A DNA stretch of 64,000 bases from an uncultured Ignavibacteria bacterium (GTDB lineage Bacteria > Bacteroidota > Ignavibacteria > SZUA-365), in assembly GCA_913061095.1 (NCBI GenBank), contig CAJXVM010000022.1, positions 7,845 through 71,844 on the forward strand, in the 5' to 3' direction. Position 1 is the first letter of the stretch, and every line of letters begins with the position of its first letter. The notes below the pieces were generated by a model. That model was not told the origin of the DNA. It ran no database searches and saw nothing but the letters and a program-made list of their open reading frames with translations. Both the position numbers and the translations under genes were made by a program. Positions 2,205 through 45,301 of the stretch are shown in pieces.

Positions 2205-2345
2205 TGGATTGCACAGAGAATAATATCACGGATTTTCACGGATTATACCACAGATTCCCACGGATTGGCATTTCGAGCATTCCAATCCGTGAAAATCAGT
2301 GTGTACTCAGTGCAAATCCGTGAAACACATTCTCCGTGTAATCCC
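2205..2345. promoter_or_regulatory. AT-rich divergent intergenic region carrying an array of CACGGATT / AATCCGTG motifs
   Basis: Direct copies of tCACGGATT at 2227 and 2237, cCACAGATT at 2248 and cCACGGATT at 2258, then inverted AATCCGTGAAA at 2284 and 2315 and CCGTGTAATCC at 2334. The region lies between the lplA-like start (minus) and the membrane-protein start (plus). Confidence 0.4.
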
Positions 2346-4297: not shown

Positions 4298-5242
4298 ATG
4301 TCCCGTACAGCACTGATTGCCATCGGCGGGAATTCCCTGGTCCGCGCGGGCGAGCGCGGCACCGTCGGCGAACAGCTCGCCAACGCGCACGCCACCGCCC
4401 GCAGCCTCGCGGCTATGGTCAAGCGCGGCTGGCGCATCGTCATTACGCACGGGAACGGTCCCCAGGTGGGGGCCGCCCTGCTGCGCTCCGAGCGCGCCGC
4501 AGGTGAGGTGTACACCCATCCCCTGGATGTGTGCGTGGCCACGACGCAGAGCGAAATCGGCTACCTGCTGCAGCGCGCCATGGAGTACGAACTGCGGCAG
4601 CTCGGCCTGACCACGCCGGTGCTTACCGTCCTCACCCAGGTGCGCGTGGACGCCGACGACCCGGCGTTCACCAATCCCACCAAGCCCATCGGTCCGTTTT
4701 ACTCGAAAGAGGAAGCCGAGCAGAAAAAACGCTCGCTGGGATGGGACGTCGTCGAAGACAGCGCCCGCGGCTGGCGGCGCGTGGTTCCCTCGCCGGAGCC
4801 GAAGGAGGTGTTCGAACAGCATATCATCCGGCATCTGCTGGATGAGGGCATGATCGTCATCGCATGCGGCGGCGGCGGGATTCCCGTGATCGAACATGAG
4901 GACCACCGCGTGGAGGGATCCGAGGCGGTGATCGACAAGGACCGCGCATCGGCCCTGCTTGCCGCCGAACTGGGAGTGGACCTGTTCGCCATCAGCACGG
5001 ACGCGCGGCAGGTGTATGTCGACTTCAAGAAGCCCACGCAGCGCGGACTCGACCGCGTGACCGTCGGTGAACTGCAGACGCTCGCCGACGAAGGACAGTT
5101 TCCGCCGGGCAGCATGGGGCCGAAAGTGGAATCCGCCATCCGCTACCTGCGGAACGGCGGGAAGGAAGTCATCATCACATCCTTCGAATATCTCAACGCC
5201 GCCCTCGACGGGAAGGACGGCACGCACATCACCGCCGAATGA
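4298..5242 (+). CDS. arcC: Carbamate kinase
   Basis: N-terminal IAIGGNSL ... ITHGNGPQVG motif and overall collinearity with the carbamate kinase / amino-acid kinase family; 314 aa, 10 nt after argF. Confidence 0.88.
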   Translation: MSRTALIAIGGNSLVRAGERGTVGEQLANAHATARSLAAMVKRGWRIVITHGNGPQVGAALLRSERAAGEVYTHPLDVCVATTQSEIGYLLQRAMEYELRQLGLTTPVLTVLTQVRVDADDPAFTNPTKPIGPFYSKEEAEQKKRSLGWDVVEDSARGWRRVVPSPEPKEVFEQHIIRHLLDEGMIVIACGGGGIPVIEHEDHRVEGSEAVIDKDRASALLAAELGVDLFAISTDARQVYVDFKKPTQRGLDRVTVGELQTLADEGQFPPGSMGPKVESAIRYLRNGGKEVIITSFEYLNAALDGKDGTHITAE

Positions 5243-5281: not shown

Positions 5282-6199
5282 ATGAAACTCAATCACGTCG
5301 TCGAATCCCAGCAGTTCACCGTTCCCCTGCTCATGGAGCTGTTCGAGCGGACGAAATCCATGGAGCGCACCGTGCGCCGCGGCGGCACGCGCGACTACGA
5401 ACACGCCATCATGGGCACGCTGTTCTACCGTCCCTCGACACGCACGCGCTTCTCCTTCGAGTCCGCCATGTACCGTCTCGGCGGCCGCGTGCTTTCCACC
5501 GAGCATGCGATGGAGTTCTCCTCGGAAGTTGCGGGTGAAAAGCTGGAAGACACGATCCGCATCATCGGGCATTACTGCGACGTCATCGTCCTCCGGCACC
5601 ACGAGGAAGGCGGCGCCAAGCGCGCCGCGGCCGTATCCCCCGTCCCCGTCATCAGTGCCGGCGACGGCACGGGCGGTCAGCATCCGACGCAGGCGCTGCT
5701 CGACCTCTACACGATTTACCGCGAATGCCACACGCTCGACGGCCTCTCGGTGGCACTGATCGGCGCGCTGGACCAGGGACGCACGGCGCGTTCGCTGGCG
5801 TACCTGCTCGGCAAGTTCGACCGCACGAAGCTGTACTTCATCGCGCCCGAGGAAATGCAGATCAAGCCCGACATCCTCGAATACCTCGAGAAGCACGGTG
5901 TGTCATACGAGCTGGCATCCGACACGCGGGACATCATCTCGCACGTCGACGTCGTTTACCAGACGCGCATCGACCGCGAGCGGCTGGCCAGCAAGGACAT
6001 CGACCTGACCCCGTACAACATCGACCGGGCGGTGCTCGAAAAGATGCGCTCCGACGCCATCATCATGCACCCGCTGCCGCGGTCGGTGGAGATCGATCAC
6101 GCCGTGGACGATGACACGCGCGCGGCGTATTTCCGGCAGACACAGAACGGACTCTACGTACGCATGGCATTGCTGACCATGCTGCTTGACAACGAATAA
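5282..6199 (+). CDS. pyrB: Aspartate carbamoyltransferase catalytic subunit
   Basis: PSTRTRFSFESAM, HPTQALLDLYTI, YQTRIDRERL (Asp-binding RxQxER) and MHPLPR motifs; 305 aa. Confidence 0.8.
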   Translation: MKLNHVVESQQFTVPLLMELFERTKSMERTVRRGGTRDYEHAIMGTLFYRPSTRTRFSFESAMYRLGGRVLSTEHAMEFSSEVAGEKLEDTIRIIGHYCDVIVLRHHEEGGAKRAAAVSPVPVISAGDGTGGQHPTQALLDLYTIYRECHTLDGLSVALIGALDQGRTARSLAYLLGKFDRTKLYFIAPEEMQIKPDILEYLEKHGVSYELASDTRDIISHVDVVYQTRIDRERLASKDIDLTPYNIDRAVLEKMRSDAIIMHPLPRSVEIDHAVDDDTRAAYFRQTQNGLYVRMALLTMLLDNE

Positions 6200-38886: not shown

Positions 38887-39063
38887 GGCGCTACGCGCAG
38901 GTGCGACAGGATGGTTATCAAAAGTAGGAACCCCCACAGGCATTTCCAAGAAAGAACGCCGTCCGGGTAATCCGTGAAATCTGTGGTGAGATTTTTTACA
39001 TCCCCATGACAACACATGCGTCCGAATTCCGTAGCATCCCTCCAGAACAAGGAGGAAACCGCC

Positions 39064-40122
39064 ATGCGCCGCATCCTGACTCTCGCGATCATCTTTCTGA
39101 CCCTCCCATCGGTCCGGCTTTCCGCACAGTCCGATTCAACCGCCTTCGATCATCTCCCCTTCGCCATGTACAGCACCGACGACGGCTTCGGTGCCGGATA
39201 CAAGGGTGTGCTGCGCAACTCATTCGGGATGCGGGAGTCGTTCGACCTCACCTTATTCCTCGCGACGCGTGGTGAACGCTGGGTCCGCCTCGGCTGGTCG
39301 CTCACCGACGCGGAGCTCCGGCAGGGGACGATATACGGACTCGCCGTCGATATCGTTGTCGATTACGACAAGATGATGAACAACCGGTTTTTCGGGATCG
39401 GACCGGATGCGAACTACGACGATCTCGAGGAGTACACCTATGAACCGCTGGAGATCACCACAGCCTTCAGCAGGGGATTCACCAGGAATTTCGTCAGCAC
39501 AGTGCAGCTGCGCTTCAAGCGTGTCTGGTCATATGGATTCGAGGATCAGAGCAGGCTTCGGAATCTCCCGGAGCACGCAGGCACCGCGGATCTGTGGTCC
39601 GCCATGCTGCAGCTGCGCCACGACACGCGCAACAGCGTCATCCATCCATCCTCCGGCATCGTGCTGCAGGCCGAAGTCGAACAGGCCATCGACCTCACAC
39701 CACATGCGTTTTCATGGACCCGATACGCAGCCCGCGTGCAGCATTACACCCGTGTACTGGGCATCATCCTGGCCCTGCGCGCGGATGCACAGTCCATGTC
39801 CGGCGACGTCCCCGTTCAGCACATGCTTTCCGTCGGCGGCAGCAGCACCGTGCGCGGCATCCCCAAAGACCGCTTCCTCGACCGCAGCAGCGCGATCGCC
39901 AACGCCGAGCTGCGCTTCCCGATCTGGCGGCGTCTCGGCGGCATCGTGGGGATGGACGCCGGTGCCGTCGCCCCCGACCTCGGTGCGCTTGCCGACTCCC
40001 GCTGGACCGTCGCCCCCGCGGCGGGACTGCGGCTGATTTTCGACACCTTCGTGACACGCGCTGATATCGGGGTGAGCGGGGAGACCGTGGGGTTTTATCT
40101 GAACTTCGGGCATATTTTTTAG
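39064..40122 (+). CDS. Omp85 / bacterial-surface-antigen (D15) family outer-membrane β-barrel
   Basis: Signal peptide MRRILTLAIIFLTLPSVRLSAQ, β-strand-rich body, and a C-terminus (GFYLNFGHIF) typical of Omp85/TamA barrels; AAGGAGG ribosome-binding site. Confidence 0.6.
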   Translation: MRRILTLAIIFLTLPSVRLSAQSDSTAFDHLPFAMYSTDDGFGAGYKGVLRNSFGMRESFDLTLFLATRGERWVRLGWSLTDAELRQGTIYGLAVDIVVDYDKMMNNRFFGIGPDANYDDLEEYTYEPLEITTAFSRGFTRNFVSTVQLRFKRVWSYGFEDQSRLRNLPEHAGTADLWSAMLQLRHDTRNSVIHPSSGIVLQAEVEQAIDLTPHAFSWTRYAARVQHYTRVLGIILALRADAQSMSGDVPVQHMLSVGGSSTVRGIPKDRFLDRSSAIANAELRFPIWRRLGGIVGMDAGAVAPDLGALADSRWTVAPAAGLRLIFDTFVTRADIGVSGETVGFYLNFGHIF

Positions 40123-40153
40123 GAACCACAGATTACGCTGATTACACAGAGGA

Positions 40154-40459
40154 TTATTTCGAGGAGAGTTTGTCCTCGACGCTGCGGACTTTGTCGTCCA
40201 TGGTCTGGTGGCGGTCGGTGCGCGTGCCGAATTTCATCACGGATGAAACGCGCGGCGCACCGGCTTCGTGAATCGCCTCGTGACAGCGGCGAACAGCAGT
40301 GAACACATCGTCCCACTCCCCTTCGATGTTTGTGCCGTACGCATGAAGATTGATCTTGAGTCCGGCTTCCTTCAGAATCGTTTCACACATCGCAACATAC
40401 TTTGAGACGGAAACACCGACTCCGAGTGGCACGACGGTCAAATCGGCAATGACATGCAT
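40154..40459 (-). CDS. MTH1187 / YkoF-family (thiamine-binding-like, UPF0045) small protein
   Basis: 101 aa; the N-terminus MHVIADLTVVPLGVGVSVSKYVA and overall layout are typical of this family. Confidence 0.65.
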   Translation of the reverse strand: MHVIADLTVVPLGVGVSVSKYVAMCETILKEAGLKINLHAYGTNIEGEWDDVFTAVRRCHEAIHEAGAPRVSSVMKFGTRTDRHQTMDDKVRSVEDKLSSK

Positions 40460-40594
40460 AAATGTATCCTCCTGGGGTTAAATGATGTGGCTGCGGCATG
40501 ACACAGGCAAAAATCACCAGCGTTGAGTTTCTGCATTGACCCTGCTGCGCAGCGCGGTTAGATTCTTCACACAGGTATTCAAAATAGGGAGAAC

Positions 40595-40780
40595 CACATG
40601 GATATCAATTCCATCACGTACGACAAGGACTCTCCGTCGTGAAGGAAAAGCCGCTGCCTGTCTAATCACTCCGCCCAGATCCTGACATACATGAAACTCA
40701 GCGGCATTCGCACCGGACTGCTGTTCAACTTCCATGAAGCAAACCTCCGAAACGGACTTGTCCGCTTCCGCCTGTAACCG
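40595..40780 (+). pseudogene. Decayed GxxExxY-family gene fragment
   Basis: Three short reading frames, MDINSITYDKDSPS*, VKEKPLPV* and HSAQILTYMKLSGIRTGLLFNFHEANLRNGLVRFRL*. They match, respectively, the N-terminus, the middle (QKPLPV) and the C-terminus (QLLTYLKLSGLKLGLLINFN) of GxxExxY proteins, but are interrupted by frameshifts and deletions. Confidence 0.6.
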
Positions 40781-40882
40781 AAAAGAGGGCTGCCGACAGG
40801 CAGCCCTCCGATCATCTCGTCTGTGTAATCAGCGTAATCTGTGGTTCAATTCATCGGAATCTCCTCACAGATCATCCTGAAA

Positions 40883-43800
40883 TCACTCCTGCATCACCTG
40901 CTCCAACCCCTCGAAGTACTTCCGGATCAGCACTTCGTAATCCCTCGCATACCCCTCGTTCACTGCCTTCTGCAGATCGTACCGCAGTCCCTCCTGCGGA
41001 TCGAGGGCGTTTTCGTCGAGGGCGGAAGGACTGCTGCGCGCGACATCCTCGCCGGTGCGGCTGCGGCGGCGCTTCTCCCAGTCGCGCTCGCGCATCGAAC
41101 GGGAGGCGTCGAGCAGACGCGAGAGAATGCGCTCCTGCTTCTGCATGGTGTTGGGATTCACATTCTCCTGCTGCATGTCGCGCACCACTTCCTGCATCTC
41201 TTCGGCGATGCGCTCGAGATCGCCCGTCAGACGGCGTCCCTCGTCACTGCGCTTCGCTTCCTCGTTGAGCTCCTGCAGCGACTTCTGCATCGCCGCCTGC
41301 TGCTGCATCAGGCGCTGCAGCTGCTGGCGCTCACGCATGGACATCTGTCCGTCCGTCGGCGTGGGCATGTTGGCGTTGATGTCCATCTGCTGCTGCGCCA
41401 TCTGGCGAAGCTGCTGCAACAGCGACCCGCCCTGTCCGCTGCCGCTCTGGGAGGATTTCTGCAGTCCCTTCGCCAGTTCTTTCGCGGCCTCGTTCAGCTC
41501 GGCCATCGCGCCGCCCTGCTGCTGTCCGCCCGAGCGCTGATCGCGGTTCTGCATGCTCTTGAGCGCTTCCTGCATTTTCTTCATCGCCTTGCCGAGATGC
41601 TGCGCCATCTGCGGATTCACCGCGAAGGTCTTTTTCGCCAGCTCCATCAGCTCGTTGCCCGTCTGATTGAGCTGCTCCATCAGGCGCATCTGCTCGCGCG
41701 TGGCCTCGCGATACTGCGGCGAATTCACCGGCAGCTTCTGCACCTGGTTCTTCAGTGCCTCCTGCTGCTTCGACATTTCCAGCACTTCCTTGAGCGCCTT
41801 CTGGAACGCGCGCTGTACCATCTTCTGCATCTGCTGCTGCATCTTCTTTTTCACGTTCTGCATGCTCTGCTGGAACTTCCGCATTTTCTGCGCCGTCTTC
41901 TTCATGCTCTGCGAAGCGCTCTGGCAGTTGCCGCCCTGGCACTGGCTGGCGGACTGGCTCATCGACTGATTCATATTCGCTTCGTTGAGCTCGTTCTGCG
42001 CCTGCTGCATTTCGTCGAGCGGCATCTCCTGCGGGAATTCCTCCATCTTCTTCTGCAGCTCCGACATCTCGCGCTGCATCGCCTCCATCTCCTTCTGCAG
42101 CTGCCGCTGCTCCTCGGCCAGCTTGTCAAGCTGCTCCTGGTTCTGCGAATCAGCGTTCTCGGTTCGCTGCGCCAGGTCCTCCTGCTTCTTCGCCAGCTCC
42201 TCGGCGCGCTTGGTGATCTCGTCCACCTTCTGCTCGATCTGGATGCGCTTGAGCAGGTCGATCGTGCGTTCGATGCTGCGGCGGAAATTCTCCTCGTTGA
42301 ATTCGAAGTTCTCCATCGCCTGCTTCATCTGCTCGGGACTCATCTCGCGCATCATTTCCTCCATGCGCTTGCGGGCCTCCTGCAGTTCCGGCGCGTCGAC
42401 CTCCTTCATGAGCTGATCCAGCTCTTCGTACTTGCGCAGCGTCTCCTCGGAGATCATGTTCTGCTTCTGCATGTCCTCCTTGAGGCGGTTCATCTGCTCA
42501 TTGACCTTCTCGACGTCTTTGAGCATCTCTTCCTGCCGCTTCATCAGCTCTTCCATCTTCTTCTGCTGCTGCCAGTCGAGCTTCTCGGCATTCTGCTGCT
42601 TCATCTCCTGCTGCAGCTTGTCGAGCTCGCGCTGCACGTCCTGCGCAGCCTTGAGCGTCTCCTCGAGATTCTCGATCGCCTTCTCCTGCTCATTGTCCGC
42701 CCGCGCGAACACCTCCTCCAGCGAGGGCAGGCGCAGCGAGAACACCTGGCTGCGGCCGACCTTGGGACCGTTGACCACGTCGTTGTCGAAGATCTCGATG
42801 TAATAATTCACCACATCCTCGGGCACGAGGCTCATCGAAGTCAGATTCCAGATGTACGGCACCTCCATCTCCAGCTCGCGCGCCGACGGCAGCGGGATGA
42901 TGATGGAGGAATACTCCTCGTGCGGCTTCTCGTAGCGCGAGGCGGCCAGACGGTACTTCAGCACCATCTTCGTGAATCCGTAGTCGTCGCTGATGCGTGA
43001 AATCAGCGGCAGGCGCATGCTCTCGTCGAGATCCGTGTTCATGCCGGGCTCGAGCACGTCGATCACTGGCACCATGTCGGGCACCACCTTCAGCGTGTAC
43101 TCGATGGGATTCGCGTTCGCGATCCCGCTTTCATCCACCAGCGCCACGTGCCAGGAGGCATCCTTCGTCAGAGGGAAGGATGTCTGCGCACGGGCGTCGC
43201 CGTGCTCGATGGACACGCGCTGGCTGTCGTTGAACACGATCGCCGCCTCGGACACTTCCTTGTTGAATGCGAGATCGAGGGAGATGCGCGTCCCAGCCAG
43301 GGCCGTCACGTCGCCCATGTTGTCGTCGAGGTAGCGCGGGGGGAGCTTCGTGTAGGAGGGATAGGTCAGCCGCACGCGCAGTGAACGCACGAACGGACGA
43401 TCCACCACATCGACGGCGAACTGCCGGCTGCGATACCCCGCCGCCTCGGCATAGTACACGATGGAGCCGCGGATCGAGGGGATGGAATGCACATACGCGC
43501 CGCTGCTGTCGAGCGTCGTAACCACGGCGTCGAATTCCTCCTGTCCCTCCTCGCGAAGATGAAACGTGATCTCGGGCTGCTTTTCCGCCGTGGTCGTGGC
43601 GGTCAGGCGCAGTTCCTCGCCCTTCACGGCCTCGCGGTCACCGGGCTCGACAATGAAATCGAAGGGTGCGGGGGGAGCGAAGTCGGTGCGGAAATTGACA
43701 ATGCGGTGCAGGGCCCCGCCCAGCGTGCCGGGCATCATCGCGAACAGCACCGCCCCGATGAGGATGCTCAGCAGGGCGCTTCGGCCTGCGCGCTTTGCAG

Positions 43801-44296
43801 GAGCCGTATCCACTACCGGCGCGAGGTCCAGCCGGTCGAAGGCGTCGGCCACGTCGCGGAAGCCGGCGTCCACCAGCTCGGGGGAATACGCCGCGTGCTT
43901 TTCCCGGCGCATTTCGCGGAATACCTGCATGGCGTTGAGCAGGCGGTCCTTGATGTACGGAAAATAGGATCCGACTTCGAGCGCCACAGTATCTTCGGAT
44001 TTCCGCCGGTGCTCGGAGAAGCGCAGCATCAGGGGCGGGACAACAAACGCGGCTGCCGCAGCGAGAATGCCGATACCCGCGATGGAAAACAGCAGCGTGC
44101 GTCCCTCGATGCCGAAGCGGAACACCGCCTCCAGCAGCGCGGCGCCGATGACGATGCCGATCACCGATACCAGCGTGAAAGACAGTCCCCGCCGCAGGTG
44201 CACGCCCTCTTCGCGTCCACGCACACCCCGCAGGGCATCCATGATTTTGTCGTAATTCCTGAGCTTCGTCTCGTCCGTCATGTCATTTCCTTTCAC
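40883..44296 (-). CDS. DUF4175-like membrane protein with a very long Q/E/K-rich coiled coil
   Basis: 1137 aa. N-terminal transmembrane segments, an extended low-complexity coiled coil (QQQ/EEM/KKM), and a conserved C-terminus (ERILSRLLDASRSMRERDWE...VLIRKYFEGL). The start ATG overlaps the stop of the upstream DUF4159 gene (ATGA). Confidence 0.7.
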   Translation of the reverse strand: MKGNDMTDETKLRNYDKIMDALRGVRGREEGVHLRRGLSFTLVSVIGIVIGAALLEAVFRFGIEGRTLLFSIAGIGILAAAAAFVVPPLMLRFSEHRRKSEDTVALEVGSYFPYIKDRLLNAMQVFREMRREKHAAYSPELVDAGFRDVADAFDRLDLAPVVDTAPAKRAGRSALLSILIGAVLFAMMPGTLGGALHRIVNFRTDFAPPAPFDFIVEPGDREAVKGEELRLTATTTAEKQPEITFHLREEGQEEFDAVVTTLDSSGAYVHSIPSIRGSIVYYAEAAGYRSRQFAVDVVDRPFVRSLRVRLTYPSYTKLPPRYLDDNMGDVTALAGTRISLDLAFNKEVSEAAIVFNDSQRVSIEHGDARAQTSFPLTKDASWHVALVDESGIANANPIEYTLKVVPDMVPVIDVLEPGMNTDLDESMRLPLISRISDDYGFTKMVLKYRLAASRYEKPHEEYSSIIIPLPSARELEMEVPYIWNLTSMSLVPEDVVNYYIEIFDNDVVNGPKVGRSQVFSLRLPSLEEVFARADNEQEKAIENLEETLKAAQDVQRELDKLQQEMKQQNAEKLDWQQQKKMEELMKRQEEMLKDVEKVNEQMNRLKEDMQKQNMISEETLRKYEELDQLMKEVDAPELQEARKRMEEMMREMSPEQMKQAMENFEFNEENFRRSIERTIDLLKRIQIEQKVDEITKRAEELAKKQEDLAQRTENADSQNQEQLDKLAEEQRQLQKEMEAMQREMSELQKKMEEFPQEMPLDEMQQAQNELNEANMNQSMSQSASQCQGGNCQSASQSMKKTAQKMRKFQQSMQNVKKKMQQQMQKMVQRAFQKALKEVLEMSKQQEALKNQVQKLPVNSPQYREATREQMRLMEQLNQTGNELMELAKKTFAVNPQMAQHLGKAMKKMQEALKSMQNRDQRSGGQQQGGAMAELNEAAKELAKGLQKSSQSGSGQGGSLLQQLRQMAQQQMDINANMPTPTDGQMSMRERQQLQRLMQQQAAMQKSLQELNEEAKRSDEGRRLTGDLERIAEEMQEVVRDMQQENVNPNTMQKQERILSRLLDASRSMRERDWEKRRRSRTGEDVARSSPSALDENALDPQEGLRYDLQKAVNEGYARDYEVLIRKYFEGLEQVMQE

Positions 44297-45063
44297 TGCG
44301 TCAGCGCCCAGACAATGATATTCAGTCCCATTCGTAGCGCCTTCTGGCGCACCTCTTCCGGATCCTTGTGGATGTCGGGATCCGCCCAGCCGTCGGCGAG
44401 ATTGCTTTCATAGGTATAGAAAACAACGAGCCGTCCCTCGTGAAAGATCCCGAATCCCTGCGGCGGTTTCTTGTCATGCTCGTGAATCTTGGGGAGGCCG
44501 TTGGGGAAGTCGTAATGCACGTGGTAAATCCCGTGGCTGAACGGCAGCTCCACCAGCTCCTTTTCCGGGAACACCTTTTTCATCTCCCGGCGGAAGGCCT
44601 TGTCGAAGCCGTAGTCGTCATCCACGTAGAGGAATCCCCCGTTTTCGAGATAGGTGCGCAGGTTCTGCGCCTCGCGGTCGGTCAGCGAGATACTGCCGTG
44701 TCCGGTCATGAACACGAAAGGATAGGAGAATAGCTTCTCGCTGCCCACTTCCACGTACTGCTCGGTGCGCACGTCCACGTCGATGTCCGTCTGCTGCCTG
44801 AGGAAGCGCAGCATGTTCAGTTCGCTGGACGGATCGTTGTACCAGTCGCCGCCGCCCTCGTACTTCACGCGCGCGATGACAAACTTGCTGCCGGACTGCA
44901 CCACCGACGTGCCACCGGTGGACGCGCCATCGGCTGACACATCTCCGTTCTGCCCCGCCGCATTCCCGCCGGAGAGCAGGAACAGGAGCGCAACGGAGAG
45001 GAAGCCGCATATCGTCTGTATCGAAAGTCTCTGACGTTCAATCATAGTGTGGAAAAGTAGCAT
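44293..45063 (-). CDS. DUF4159 domain protein
   Basis: KFVIARVKYEGGGDWYNDPSSELNML signature of DUF4159; 256 aa, translationally coupled to the DUF4175-like gene. Confidence 0.7.
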   Translation of the reverse strand: MLLFHTMIERQRLSIQTICGFLSVALLFLLSGGNAAGQNGDVSADGASTGGTSVVQSGSKFVIARVKYEGGGDWYNDPSSELNMLRFLRQQTDIDVDVRTEQYVEVGSEKLFSYPFVFMTGHGSISLTDREAQNLRTYLENGGFLYVDDDYGFDKAFRREMKKVFPEKELVELPFSHGIYHVHYDFPNGLPKIHEHDKKPPQGFGIFHEGRLVVFYTYESNLADGWADPDIHKDPEEVRQKALRMGLNIIVWALTQ

Positions 45064-45301
45064 GGGCGGGGGTACAGTGCAAGGTGAATATCGTTCTCTG
45101 CGTTCCTCAGCGTTCCTCTGTGGTGAAAAACCCTCTGCGTCCTCTCCACGTGAAGTGACGCATGATGCGCGGGCGGATAATGCATGCAGGGAAAACGGCT
45201 GGGCGGGAGCAGTTCACACGCCTCTGTACGGCAGTCCGTATTGCATGTTCATTTTCGGATAGTTACATTCCGTTGTTGCGTCACAAGCCCCCGGTGCCCG
45301 C

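Follow-up and report, generated by a model that had tools for sequence, protein, structure and literature searches.

Inverted repeats beside a YkoF-like gene in an Ignavibacteria genome are probably arms of a cross-phylum palindromic repeat family that sometimes encloses GxxExxY genes

Introduction

What does a perfect 26-bp inverted repeat signify when it encloses one intact gene and one broken gene of unrelated families? Such a repeat lies between an Omp85-family gene and a DUF4175 gene in a 64,000-nucleotide stretch of DNA from an uncultured Ignavibacteria bacterium (contig CAJXVM010000022.1, positions 7,845 to 71,844). This whole stretch is called the window below, and coordinates refer to it unless another locus is named; loci compared with it carry L numbers. 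The segment of about 720 bp that is bounded by the repeats contains a YkoF-like gene and the remains of a GxxExxY gene. A first-pass annotation, made from the sequence alone, took the segment for a non-autonomous mobile cassette or an insertion sequence (IS) remnant carrying both genes as passengers. Here, we ask where the repeats come from, which of the enclosed genes belongs to them and whether the unit is mobile as a whole.

Results

Anatomy of the inverted repeat

The 26-mer AACCACAGATTACGCTGATTACACAG occupies positions 40124–40149 on the forward strand and, without a single mismatch, positions 40821–40846 on the reverse strand, exactly as first annotated. Its chance origin was ruled out by dinucleotide shuffling, in which 0 of 100 shuffled sequences matched the 26-nt inverted repeat. 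No other copy of AACCACAGATTACGCTGATTACACAG was found within the 64-kb window, even with three mismatches allowed. If one mismatch is allowed, complementarity reaches 31 nt, giving a left, L-type arm at 40123–40153 (forward strand) and a right, R-type arm at 40817–40847 (its reverse complement, on the reverse strand) that are separated by 663 nt. The core of the left arm (40124–40150) is built of three 9-nt units, AACCACAG ATTACGCTG ATTACACAG A. It begins one base past the stop codon of the Omp85-family gene (forward strand, ending at 40122) and runs as far as the YkoF-like stop codon. The core of the right arm spans 40820–40846, and the DUF4175 gene on that side ends at 40883 on the reverse strand. 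The flanks of the repeat pair, TTTTTAGG and CAATTCAT, contain no target-site duplication, and we concur with the first-pass annotation that no transposase is encoded between the arms.

The intact YkoF-like gene (101 aa; 40154–40459, reverse strand) and the GxxExxY pseudogene (40598–40776, forward strand; PF13366/TIGR04256) are divergent, and their start codons are separated by a 138-nt spacer (40460–40597) with promoter-like sites on both strands (40536–40564, forward; 40608–40581, reverse). The arm profile of the repeat family described below has no match in this spacer. A vestigial left arm seen by eye just 5′ of the GxxExxY start (approximately 40564–40584) was rejected, since lowering the stringency to E = 100 brought no profile match at that place. 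Past the GxxExxY stop codon and ahead of the right arm, a G+C-rich hairpin is followed by a T run on the reverse strand (40784–40809). This hairpin is terminator-like for the DUF4175 transcript, which it would end after read-through of the right arm. Compared by eye with the loops of palindromic elements in the relative L004, it appears to correspond to the central hairpin of the long-arm elements found in relatives. Just outside the right arm, a candidate remnant of a long arm's outer part was recognized by eye at 40848–40870 (reverse strand, CAATTCATCGGAATCTCC...) from its resemblance to the outer arms of relatives (L004c and L030/L162); this assignment is probable at best and weak. The left arm has no counterpart of this outer part.

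The family profile returned only two strong matches in the window, namely the two arms (E about 1e-8; 7.9e-9 for the left and 1e-8 for the right), and the arms found elsewhere in the window are all diverged. The spacer between a glycosyltransferase (GT2) gene and the Omp85 gene harbors a solo, decayed R-type arm at 38962–38987 (reverse strand; 81% complementary to the left arm; profile E = 0.14 at 38986–38967), and the same spacer holds full hairpin elements in L004, L003, L006 and L192. A complete, imperfect hairpin of 140 nt with no gene inside (−65.1 kcal/mol, z = −9.5) is located between two genes at 2206–2345; its CACGGATT/CACAGATT units represent a sister variety of the window arms. The arm core CCACAGATT recurs at both places, at 2248–2256 (forward) and 38978–38986 (reverse), which makes four matches against 0.39 expected; the first-pass annotation had the former copy right and put the latter at 38975. 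Another solo arm, R-type and of the CTCTGYG variety (CTCTGCGTTCCTCAGCGTTCCTCTGTGGTG, then AAAAA), lies at 45097–45128 in a seemingly non-coding stretch and shares its outer end with arms adjoining GxxExxY genes in Bacteroides (L193). Rfam searches of the window returned one tRNA only, with no rRNA and no RNA family fitting the arms.

A GxxExxY gene in apparent recent decay

The GxxExxY gene had been described as decayed, frameshifted and internally deleted, with its pieces in three different frames. The decay is as described, and the frames number two: one is common to the N- and C-terminal pieces, and SVVKEKPLPV, the middle piece, is read in the other. The C-terminal piece matches TIGR04256 at 1.2e-7 with 32.1 bits, which is under the 35-bit cut-off. 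A second strain, L150, provides an intact allele for comparison. Its 352-kb contig and the window share 99.5% identity across 8.7 kb. Both arms are present there, with 861 nt between them, as is the YkoF-like gene, and the GxxExxY gene is intact at 123 aa (P0119; PF13366, 6.8e-41; 139.7 bits, above the GxxExxY family cut-off). Relative to this allele, the window copy has lost 94 bp with the GxxExxY motif and 98 bp with the catalytic D...ExK core, and the 37-bp middle piece that it retains is frameshifted and strongly diverged, with about nine differences. As so similar a strain keeps the same arms together with an intact gene, the window gene must have decayed recently. The decay is not an assembly artefact, since three assemblies (the window, L001 and L002) are identical at this locus. 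The remaining differences between the window and L150 are strongly clustered (39201–39255 and 44219–45051, with, for example, four within 15 bp at 44716–44731), which suggests recombination tracts between strains.

Further exact copies of the repeat were looked for with its 24-mer core, which was found in 45 metagenome stretches, L150 among them; within the 352-kb contig of L150, one locus only was returned. The closest homologue of the intact L150 GxxExxY protein is just 63% identical to it, which gives no hint of a recent transfer or of near-identical paralogues. The GxxExxY gene that occupies the same slot in L004 encodes a protein 59% identical to that of L150, which is no nearer than the genes of other phyla, and on this comparison the two genes may be independent arrivals.

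The YkoF-like gene is an apparent resident of its slot

The 101-aa ORF matches PF01910 (2.7e-34; 117.4 bits against a cut-off of 24.9) and TIGR00106 (4e-38; 130 bits against a cut-off of 54.7 bits) over its full length and is, by these matches, an intact thiamine-binding-type protein of the MTH1187/YkoF family, in line with its original annotation. With the Omp85 protein as the synteny anchor, we read the genomic context of six homologues at 60–68% identity. The gene order Omp85, thiamine-binding-type gene, DUF4175 was present in all six relatives, and the YkoF-like orthologues of the four relatives that were aligned are 78–84% identical. One of the six, L003, has no repeats in either spacer beside the YkoF-like gene, its elements being confined to the GT2|Omp85 spacer. 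Because the gene is found in the same slot in six relatives, and in L003 without repeats there, we read it as an old, vertically inherited resident of this slot, neither a passenger nor mobile cargo.

The strand of the gene varies between genomes: it is the forward strand in L003 and L004, and the reverse strand in the window, L005, L006, L191 and L192. In a tree of Omp85 proteins, the window clusters with the two forward-strand genomes, L003 and L004, so at least one inversion must have taken place in this group. In L004, the neighboring GT2 gene is inverted compared to all other relatives and has palindromic elements on both sides (4825–4941 and 5772–5920 of that locus); an extra VWA-domain gene is inserted beside it.

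L004 contains three elements of about 165 bp, one in each of the Omp85|YkoF, YkoF|GxxExxY and GxxExxY|DUF4175 spacers, whose arms include ...AGATTACGCTGATTACGCAGA..., as well as an intact 127-aa GxxExxY gene. Flipping of the loop inside these elements was considered and dropped for want of evidence, element a being merely opposite to b and c in its whole orientation. In L004, L005, L191 and L192, a hairpin element begins right past the Omp85 stop codon, which is the place of the left arm in the window. Furthermore, a solo long arm lies beside the YkoF-like start codon in L005, L006 and L191.

The arms belong to a sharply defined family

We scanned one genome per species with the arm 20-mer GATTACRCNGATTACRCAGA. 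At least 120 genome stretches were matched, compared to a chance expectation estimated at about 17, and the phyla among the matches listed include Acidobacteriota, Planctomycetota, Verrucomicrobiota, Chloroflexota, Bacteroidota, Gemmatimonadota and others. The logo of 144 instances is a block of exactly 29 nt, ATCCRCAG ATTACRCAG ATTACRCAG ATT, that comprises three 9-nt units. Bases outside the search pattern are conserved as well (C at −4 and −2, 97%), and beyond the 29 nt conservation falls sharply to background. The repeat family is widespread, sharply defined and, apparently, undescribed. The outer end of the arm (ATCCACA) bears a likeness to the DnaA box, which we discarded because two required upstream bases are not conserved; a search for periodic CRCNG units by a loose regular expression was abandoned, being swamped by G+C-rich coding sequence.

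The 165 loci that we compiled contain 344 arms and 119 adjacent L→R pairs. The inner distance of these pairs is mostly 1–130 nt, occupied by a non-coding loop, and in a few cases 220–460 nt. Adjacent arms have a marked polarity, with 93 L→R arrangements against 10 R→L. Direct target-site duplications of 3 nt were found in none of 64 pairs, and those of 2 nt in 5 of 64, where 4 were expected; the flanks of arm pairs tend instead to lengthen the palindrome by 2–4 nt. The median number of differences over the 29 positions is about 2 within a pair and about 4 between loci, and near-identity is common among arms from separate elements of one locus (at most one mismatch in 5 of 20 comparisons). Covariation between arms is confined to the outermost variable positions, which lends weak support to a hairpin requirement, and the inner variable positions do not covary. 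As orthologous hairpins persist at 82% flank identity, the elements are mostly old and static. Rfam searches of eight hairpin-bearing loci found no family and returned spurious miRNA-precursor matches only, and loci L001–L172 contain no rRNA signature motifs. A departure from the usual arm-pair anatomy is seen in a Flavobacterium metagenome-assembled genome, where positions 1–1600 of L072 form a tandem array of approximately 280-bp units, each with a single R-type arm (TCTGCGTAATCAGCGTAATCTGCGGGAT) that points the same way throughout the array.

GxxExxY genes between arms elsewhere

When the ORFs adjoining arms were clustered, no recurrent family emerged except GxxExxY. Likewise, the precomputed domain hits around the loci (mostly Pfam labels) include no transposase, and PF13366 is the sole recurrent cargo. 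The search from the arm side found a GxxExxY gene between arms in L067, L047 and L150, so that about 3 of the 119 motif-found arm pairs carry the gene. In L004, the GxxExxY gene is flanked by whole elements. The search from the gene side led to two Acidobacteriota loci (L183 and L174, 1467–1914) and eight plasmid-borne genes. In the former, a GxxExxY gene located between sufD and sufS is bracketed by ACCACAGAGGACACAGAGAGCACAGAGGG and its complement, a repeat with the same build of three 9-nt units and other spacer triplets. Half of the eight plasmid-borne GxxExxY genes have an inverted pair (L193, L194, L195, L198); the others have a partial arm with an adjacent hairpin (L196), direct repeats (L197, L199) or nothing (L200). 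At the loci where a GxxExxY gene lies between arms, the arms are of the type described above or variants of it. In all seven annotated loci (five plasmid and two suf-operon), the GxxExxY gene is co-directional with its neighbors in a very short, operon-like spacer.

A comparison of two Sphingomonas species gives a presence–absence pair: the element is present in the fabD|fabG spacer of S. parapaucimobilis and absent from that of S. paeninsulae (loci L195 and L201), and the two spacers are about equal in length once the element is discounted. The arms have also left their mark on protein databases, where N-terminal extensions of GxxExxY homologues (PQITQI, MTQI, SPRITQI) are translated arm. A tblastn search with one GxxExxY protein found the gene in only 2 of the 120 listed genome loci, a search too insensitive to estimate the association. 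Viral contigs searched for GxxExxY loci yielded no confirmed relatives, and in the searchable literature we found no description of the repeats that flank GxxExxY genes or of a link between the two.

The GxxExxY protein is a predicted nuclease

GxxExxY proteins are small and bacterial, and their family is very large: a single query retrieved 4216 homologues at E ≤ 1e-25. No solved structure related to the protein by sequence was found. Its fold, predicted with high confidence (pLDDT 94.8), is best matched, in all cases weakly (E ≥ 4e-3), by Cas4 SSO0001, lambda-type exonucleases and other PD-(D/E)XK enzymes. The model thus portrays GxxExxY as a putative minimal PD-(D/E)XK nuclease with a Cas4/lambda-exonuclease fold. 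Steczkiewicz et al. 2012 list the function of the PF13366 family as unknown (PMC3424549).

Discussion

Origin of the arrangement in the window

We hold it probable, at roughly 60%, that the 26-nt repeats are arms of a cross-phylum palindromic family, that the YkoF-like gene is a resident now situated between two surviving arms and that the GxxExxY gene is a decaying part of one element. An element of this family consists of arms of about 29 nt, each with three 9-nt units and a CRCAG core, with L and R arms facing each other around what is usually a short non-coding loop and sometimes a small GxxExxY gene. Most relatives examined carry such elements in the spacers around the Omp85, YkoF-like, DUF4175 and neighboring glycosyltransferase genes. 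The left arm would most likely derive from the hairpin seen in the Omp85|YkoF spacer of relatives, and the right arm from a GxxExxY element of the YkoF|DUF4175 spacer, each element having lost its partner arm; alternatively, the arms may have recombined with each other, with a subsequent loss of the inner arms.

The canonical order of a gene-bearing element is arm, short leader, GxxExxY, hairpin, arm, whereas in the window the YkoF-like gene stands between the left arm and the leader. A single-inversion origin from the canonical order was dismissed after enumerating the options by hand, none of which works. It counts against our preferred explanation that no single inversion or deletion suffices and at least two events are needed, and the arm profile detects no trace of the lost partner arms in the window. 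The path given above, inferred from the elements of relatives, is the simplest account. As a whole, the 720-bp unit is neither a mobile cassette nor an IS remnant. It most likely arose from neighboring elements by rearrangement, and its GxxExxY part resembles a decaying element of a sort that is, or once was, mobile.

Other readings of the locus

The original reading, in which a single non-autonomous cassette or IS remnant brought in the YkoF-like and GxxExxY genes as passengers between its 26-bp repeats, is the least probable in our estimate. In its favor are perfect arms of the correct polarity, with their outer ends outward and no transposase inside, and the same arrangement in L150. However, the YkoF-like gene sits between Omp85 and DUF4175 in six relatives too, at 78–84% identity, including L003, which lacks arms there; the exact repeat was returned from one place only in the 352-kb sister contig; target-site duplications, which were looked for, are missing from the window copy and from the 64 family pairs; and no other of the 119 arm pairs encloses a YkoF-like gene. 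What survives of this reading is that the arms belong to a dispersed family and that the GxxExxY part may have been mobile; the passenger role of the YkoF-like gene and the mobility of the 720 bp are lost. A programmed invertible segment (inverton), with the arms as invertase sites and flipping as a switch for the expression of the YkoF-like gene or its neighbors, is also very unlikely. It draws on the occurrence of the YkoF-like gene in either orientation among relatives and on the inverted, element-flanked GT2 gene of L004. Yet all four independent assemblies of the species (the window, L001, L002 and L150) have a single orientation, no recombinase domain is among the precomputed hits (mostly Pfam labels) for genes up to about 10 kb away, inversion of the whole segment reproduces the arrangement of no relative, and the differences in orientation follow deep clades, suggesting rare evolutionary events.

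A serious rival to a DNA-level element, even if we deem it rather unlikely, is a role in RNA or an ordinary structural repeat of the REP or 23S intervening sequence (IVS) type. Here, hairpins or long stems would terminate or stabilize transcripts or be cut by RNase III, the GxxExxY genes would be guests that are merely tolerated inside, and the long-range pairing in the window would be accidental. The majority of arm pairs are indeed short spacer hairpins, loops hold G+C hairpins with T runs, and GxxExxY genes run with their neighbors in operon-like spacers at seven of seven annotated loci. In addition, GxxExxY and four-helix-bundle genes occur in inverted-repeat-bounded 23S rRNA intervening sequences. 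Against this, (i) the sequence itself is conserved across phyla beyond what pairing demands, without covariation at the inner variable positions, (ii) no Rfam family matches, (iii) there is no rRNA in the window according to Rfam and there are no rRNA signature motifs in L001–L172, and (iv) a window transcript that spans both arms would run antisense through the YkoF-like gene.

A selfish element with a nuclease gene

We favor a DNA-level selfish element whose nuclease would recognize the arms. By acting on the arms or on the hairpin or cruciform that they form, the GxxExxY protein would spread or maintain the gene-bearing element, which would enter short spacers without target duplication. 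Internal deletions of the GxxExxY gene, such as those in the window, would be the route from a gene-bearing element to an empty hairpin, and empty hairpins would be its non-autonomous or decayed derivatives. With the gene in about 3 of 119 pairs, the nuclease may be cargo and not the engine. A broader and distinctly more tentative proposal is that GxxExxY genes and arms of three 9-nt units together constitute an undescribed, cross-phylum class of selfish elements. In such a class, a nuclease cassette would insert into short spacers, those inside operons included, leaving no target duplication, would be recognized via its CRCAG arms or their hairpin and would decay by internal deletion to empty hairpins that promote local inversions of neighboring genes; the window would capture both processes at one moment.

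Taken alone, the window is of modest interest: a resident gene happens to lie between two arms, with a nuclease gene in decay next to it. The point of interest is the family-level link of a conserved repeat with GxxExxY genes, the mode of movement being one that we infer. PF13366 genes appear typically to be bracketed by a conserved, periodic inverted repeat that also forms gene-less hairpins in many phyla; this association offers a concrete, testable idea of the target of the protein, and a nuclease-based counterpart would be added to the REPIN–RAYT and MITE–transposase pairs. For annotation, translation of the arms explains odd N-terminal extensions (ITQITQI etc.) on many predicted proteins, and the elements could explain local gene inversions beside hairpins.

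Comparison with known systems

The closest parallels are with REP/REPIN elements, which are reportedly accompanied by RAYT genes. The two systems share short palindromic spacer repeats, hairpin doublets, the lack of target-site duplication and a small gene flanked by repeats of which most copies are gene-less. In contrast to REPIN–RAYT, the flanked gene here encodes a PF13366 PD-(D/E)XK nuclease and not a Y1 HUH (IS200/IS605-like) RAYT protein, and the arm sequence, with its three 9-nt units, is not species-specific but conserved across phyla. Miniature inverted-repeat transposable elements (MITEs), such as the Correia elements of Neisseria, resemble the family in their terminal inverted repeats of about 26–30 nt, length of 60–200 bp, spacer location and origin by internal deletion of a longer gene-bearing form, a step that the window displays. 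Unlike MITEs, the elements lack target-site duplications (64 copies) and a transposase of a known IS family, and their copies within a genome are diverged, the window having no near-identical second copy at up to three mismatches.

The 23S rRNA intervening sequences of Leptospira and Coxiella are said to contain small ORFs. They, too, are inverted-repeat-bounded inserts with a small ORF, of families later named 'IVS protein', and have short, ORF-less hairpin versions; the elements described here are instead found between protein-coding genes, with no rRNA in the window by Rfam and no rRNA signature motifs in L001–L172. Invertons are reportedly phase-variable segments flanked by inverted repeats, and the locus shares with them inverted repeats of about 20–30 nt around a segment whose orientation varies between genomes. 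It differs in that the domain hits for genes within about 10 kb show no invertase, that four assemblies share one orientation and that its repeats come from a dispersed family. Finally, the presence or absence of a small nuclease gene at a precise site, as in the fabD|fabG spacer, is reminiscent of PD-(D/E)XK homing endonucleases, which are free-standing or intron-borne (for example I-Ssp6803I and I-Bth0305I). Unlike these enzymes, the GxxExxY genes have no conserved target gene, and what stays constant is the arms and not the site of insertion.
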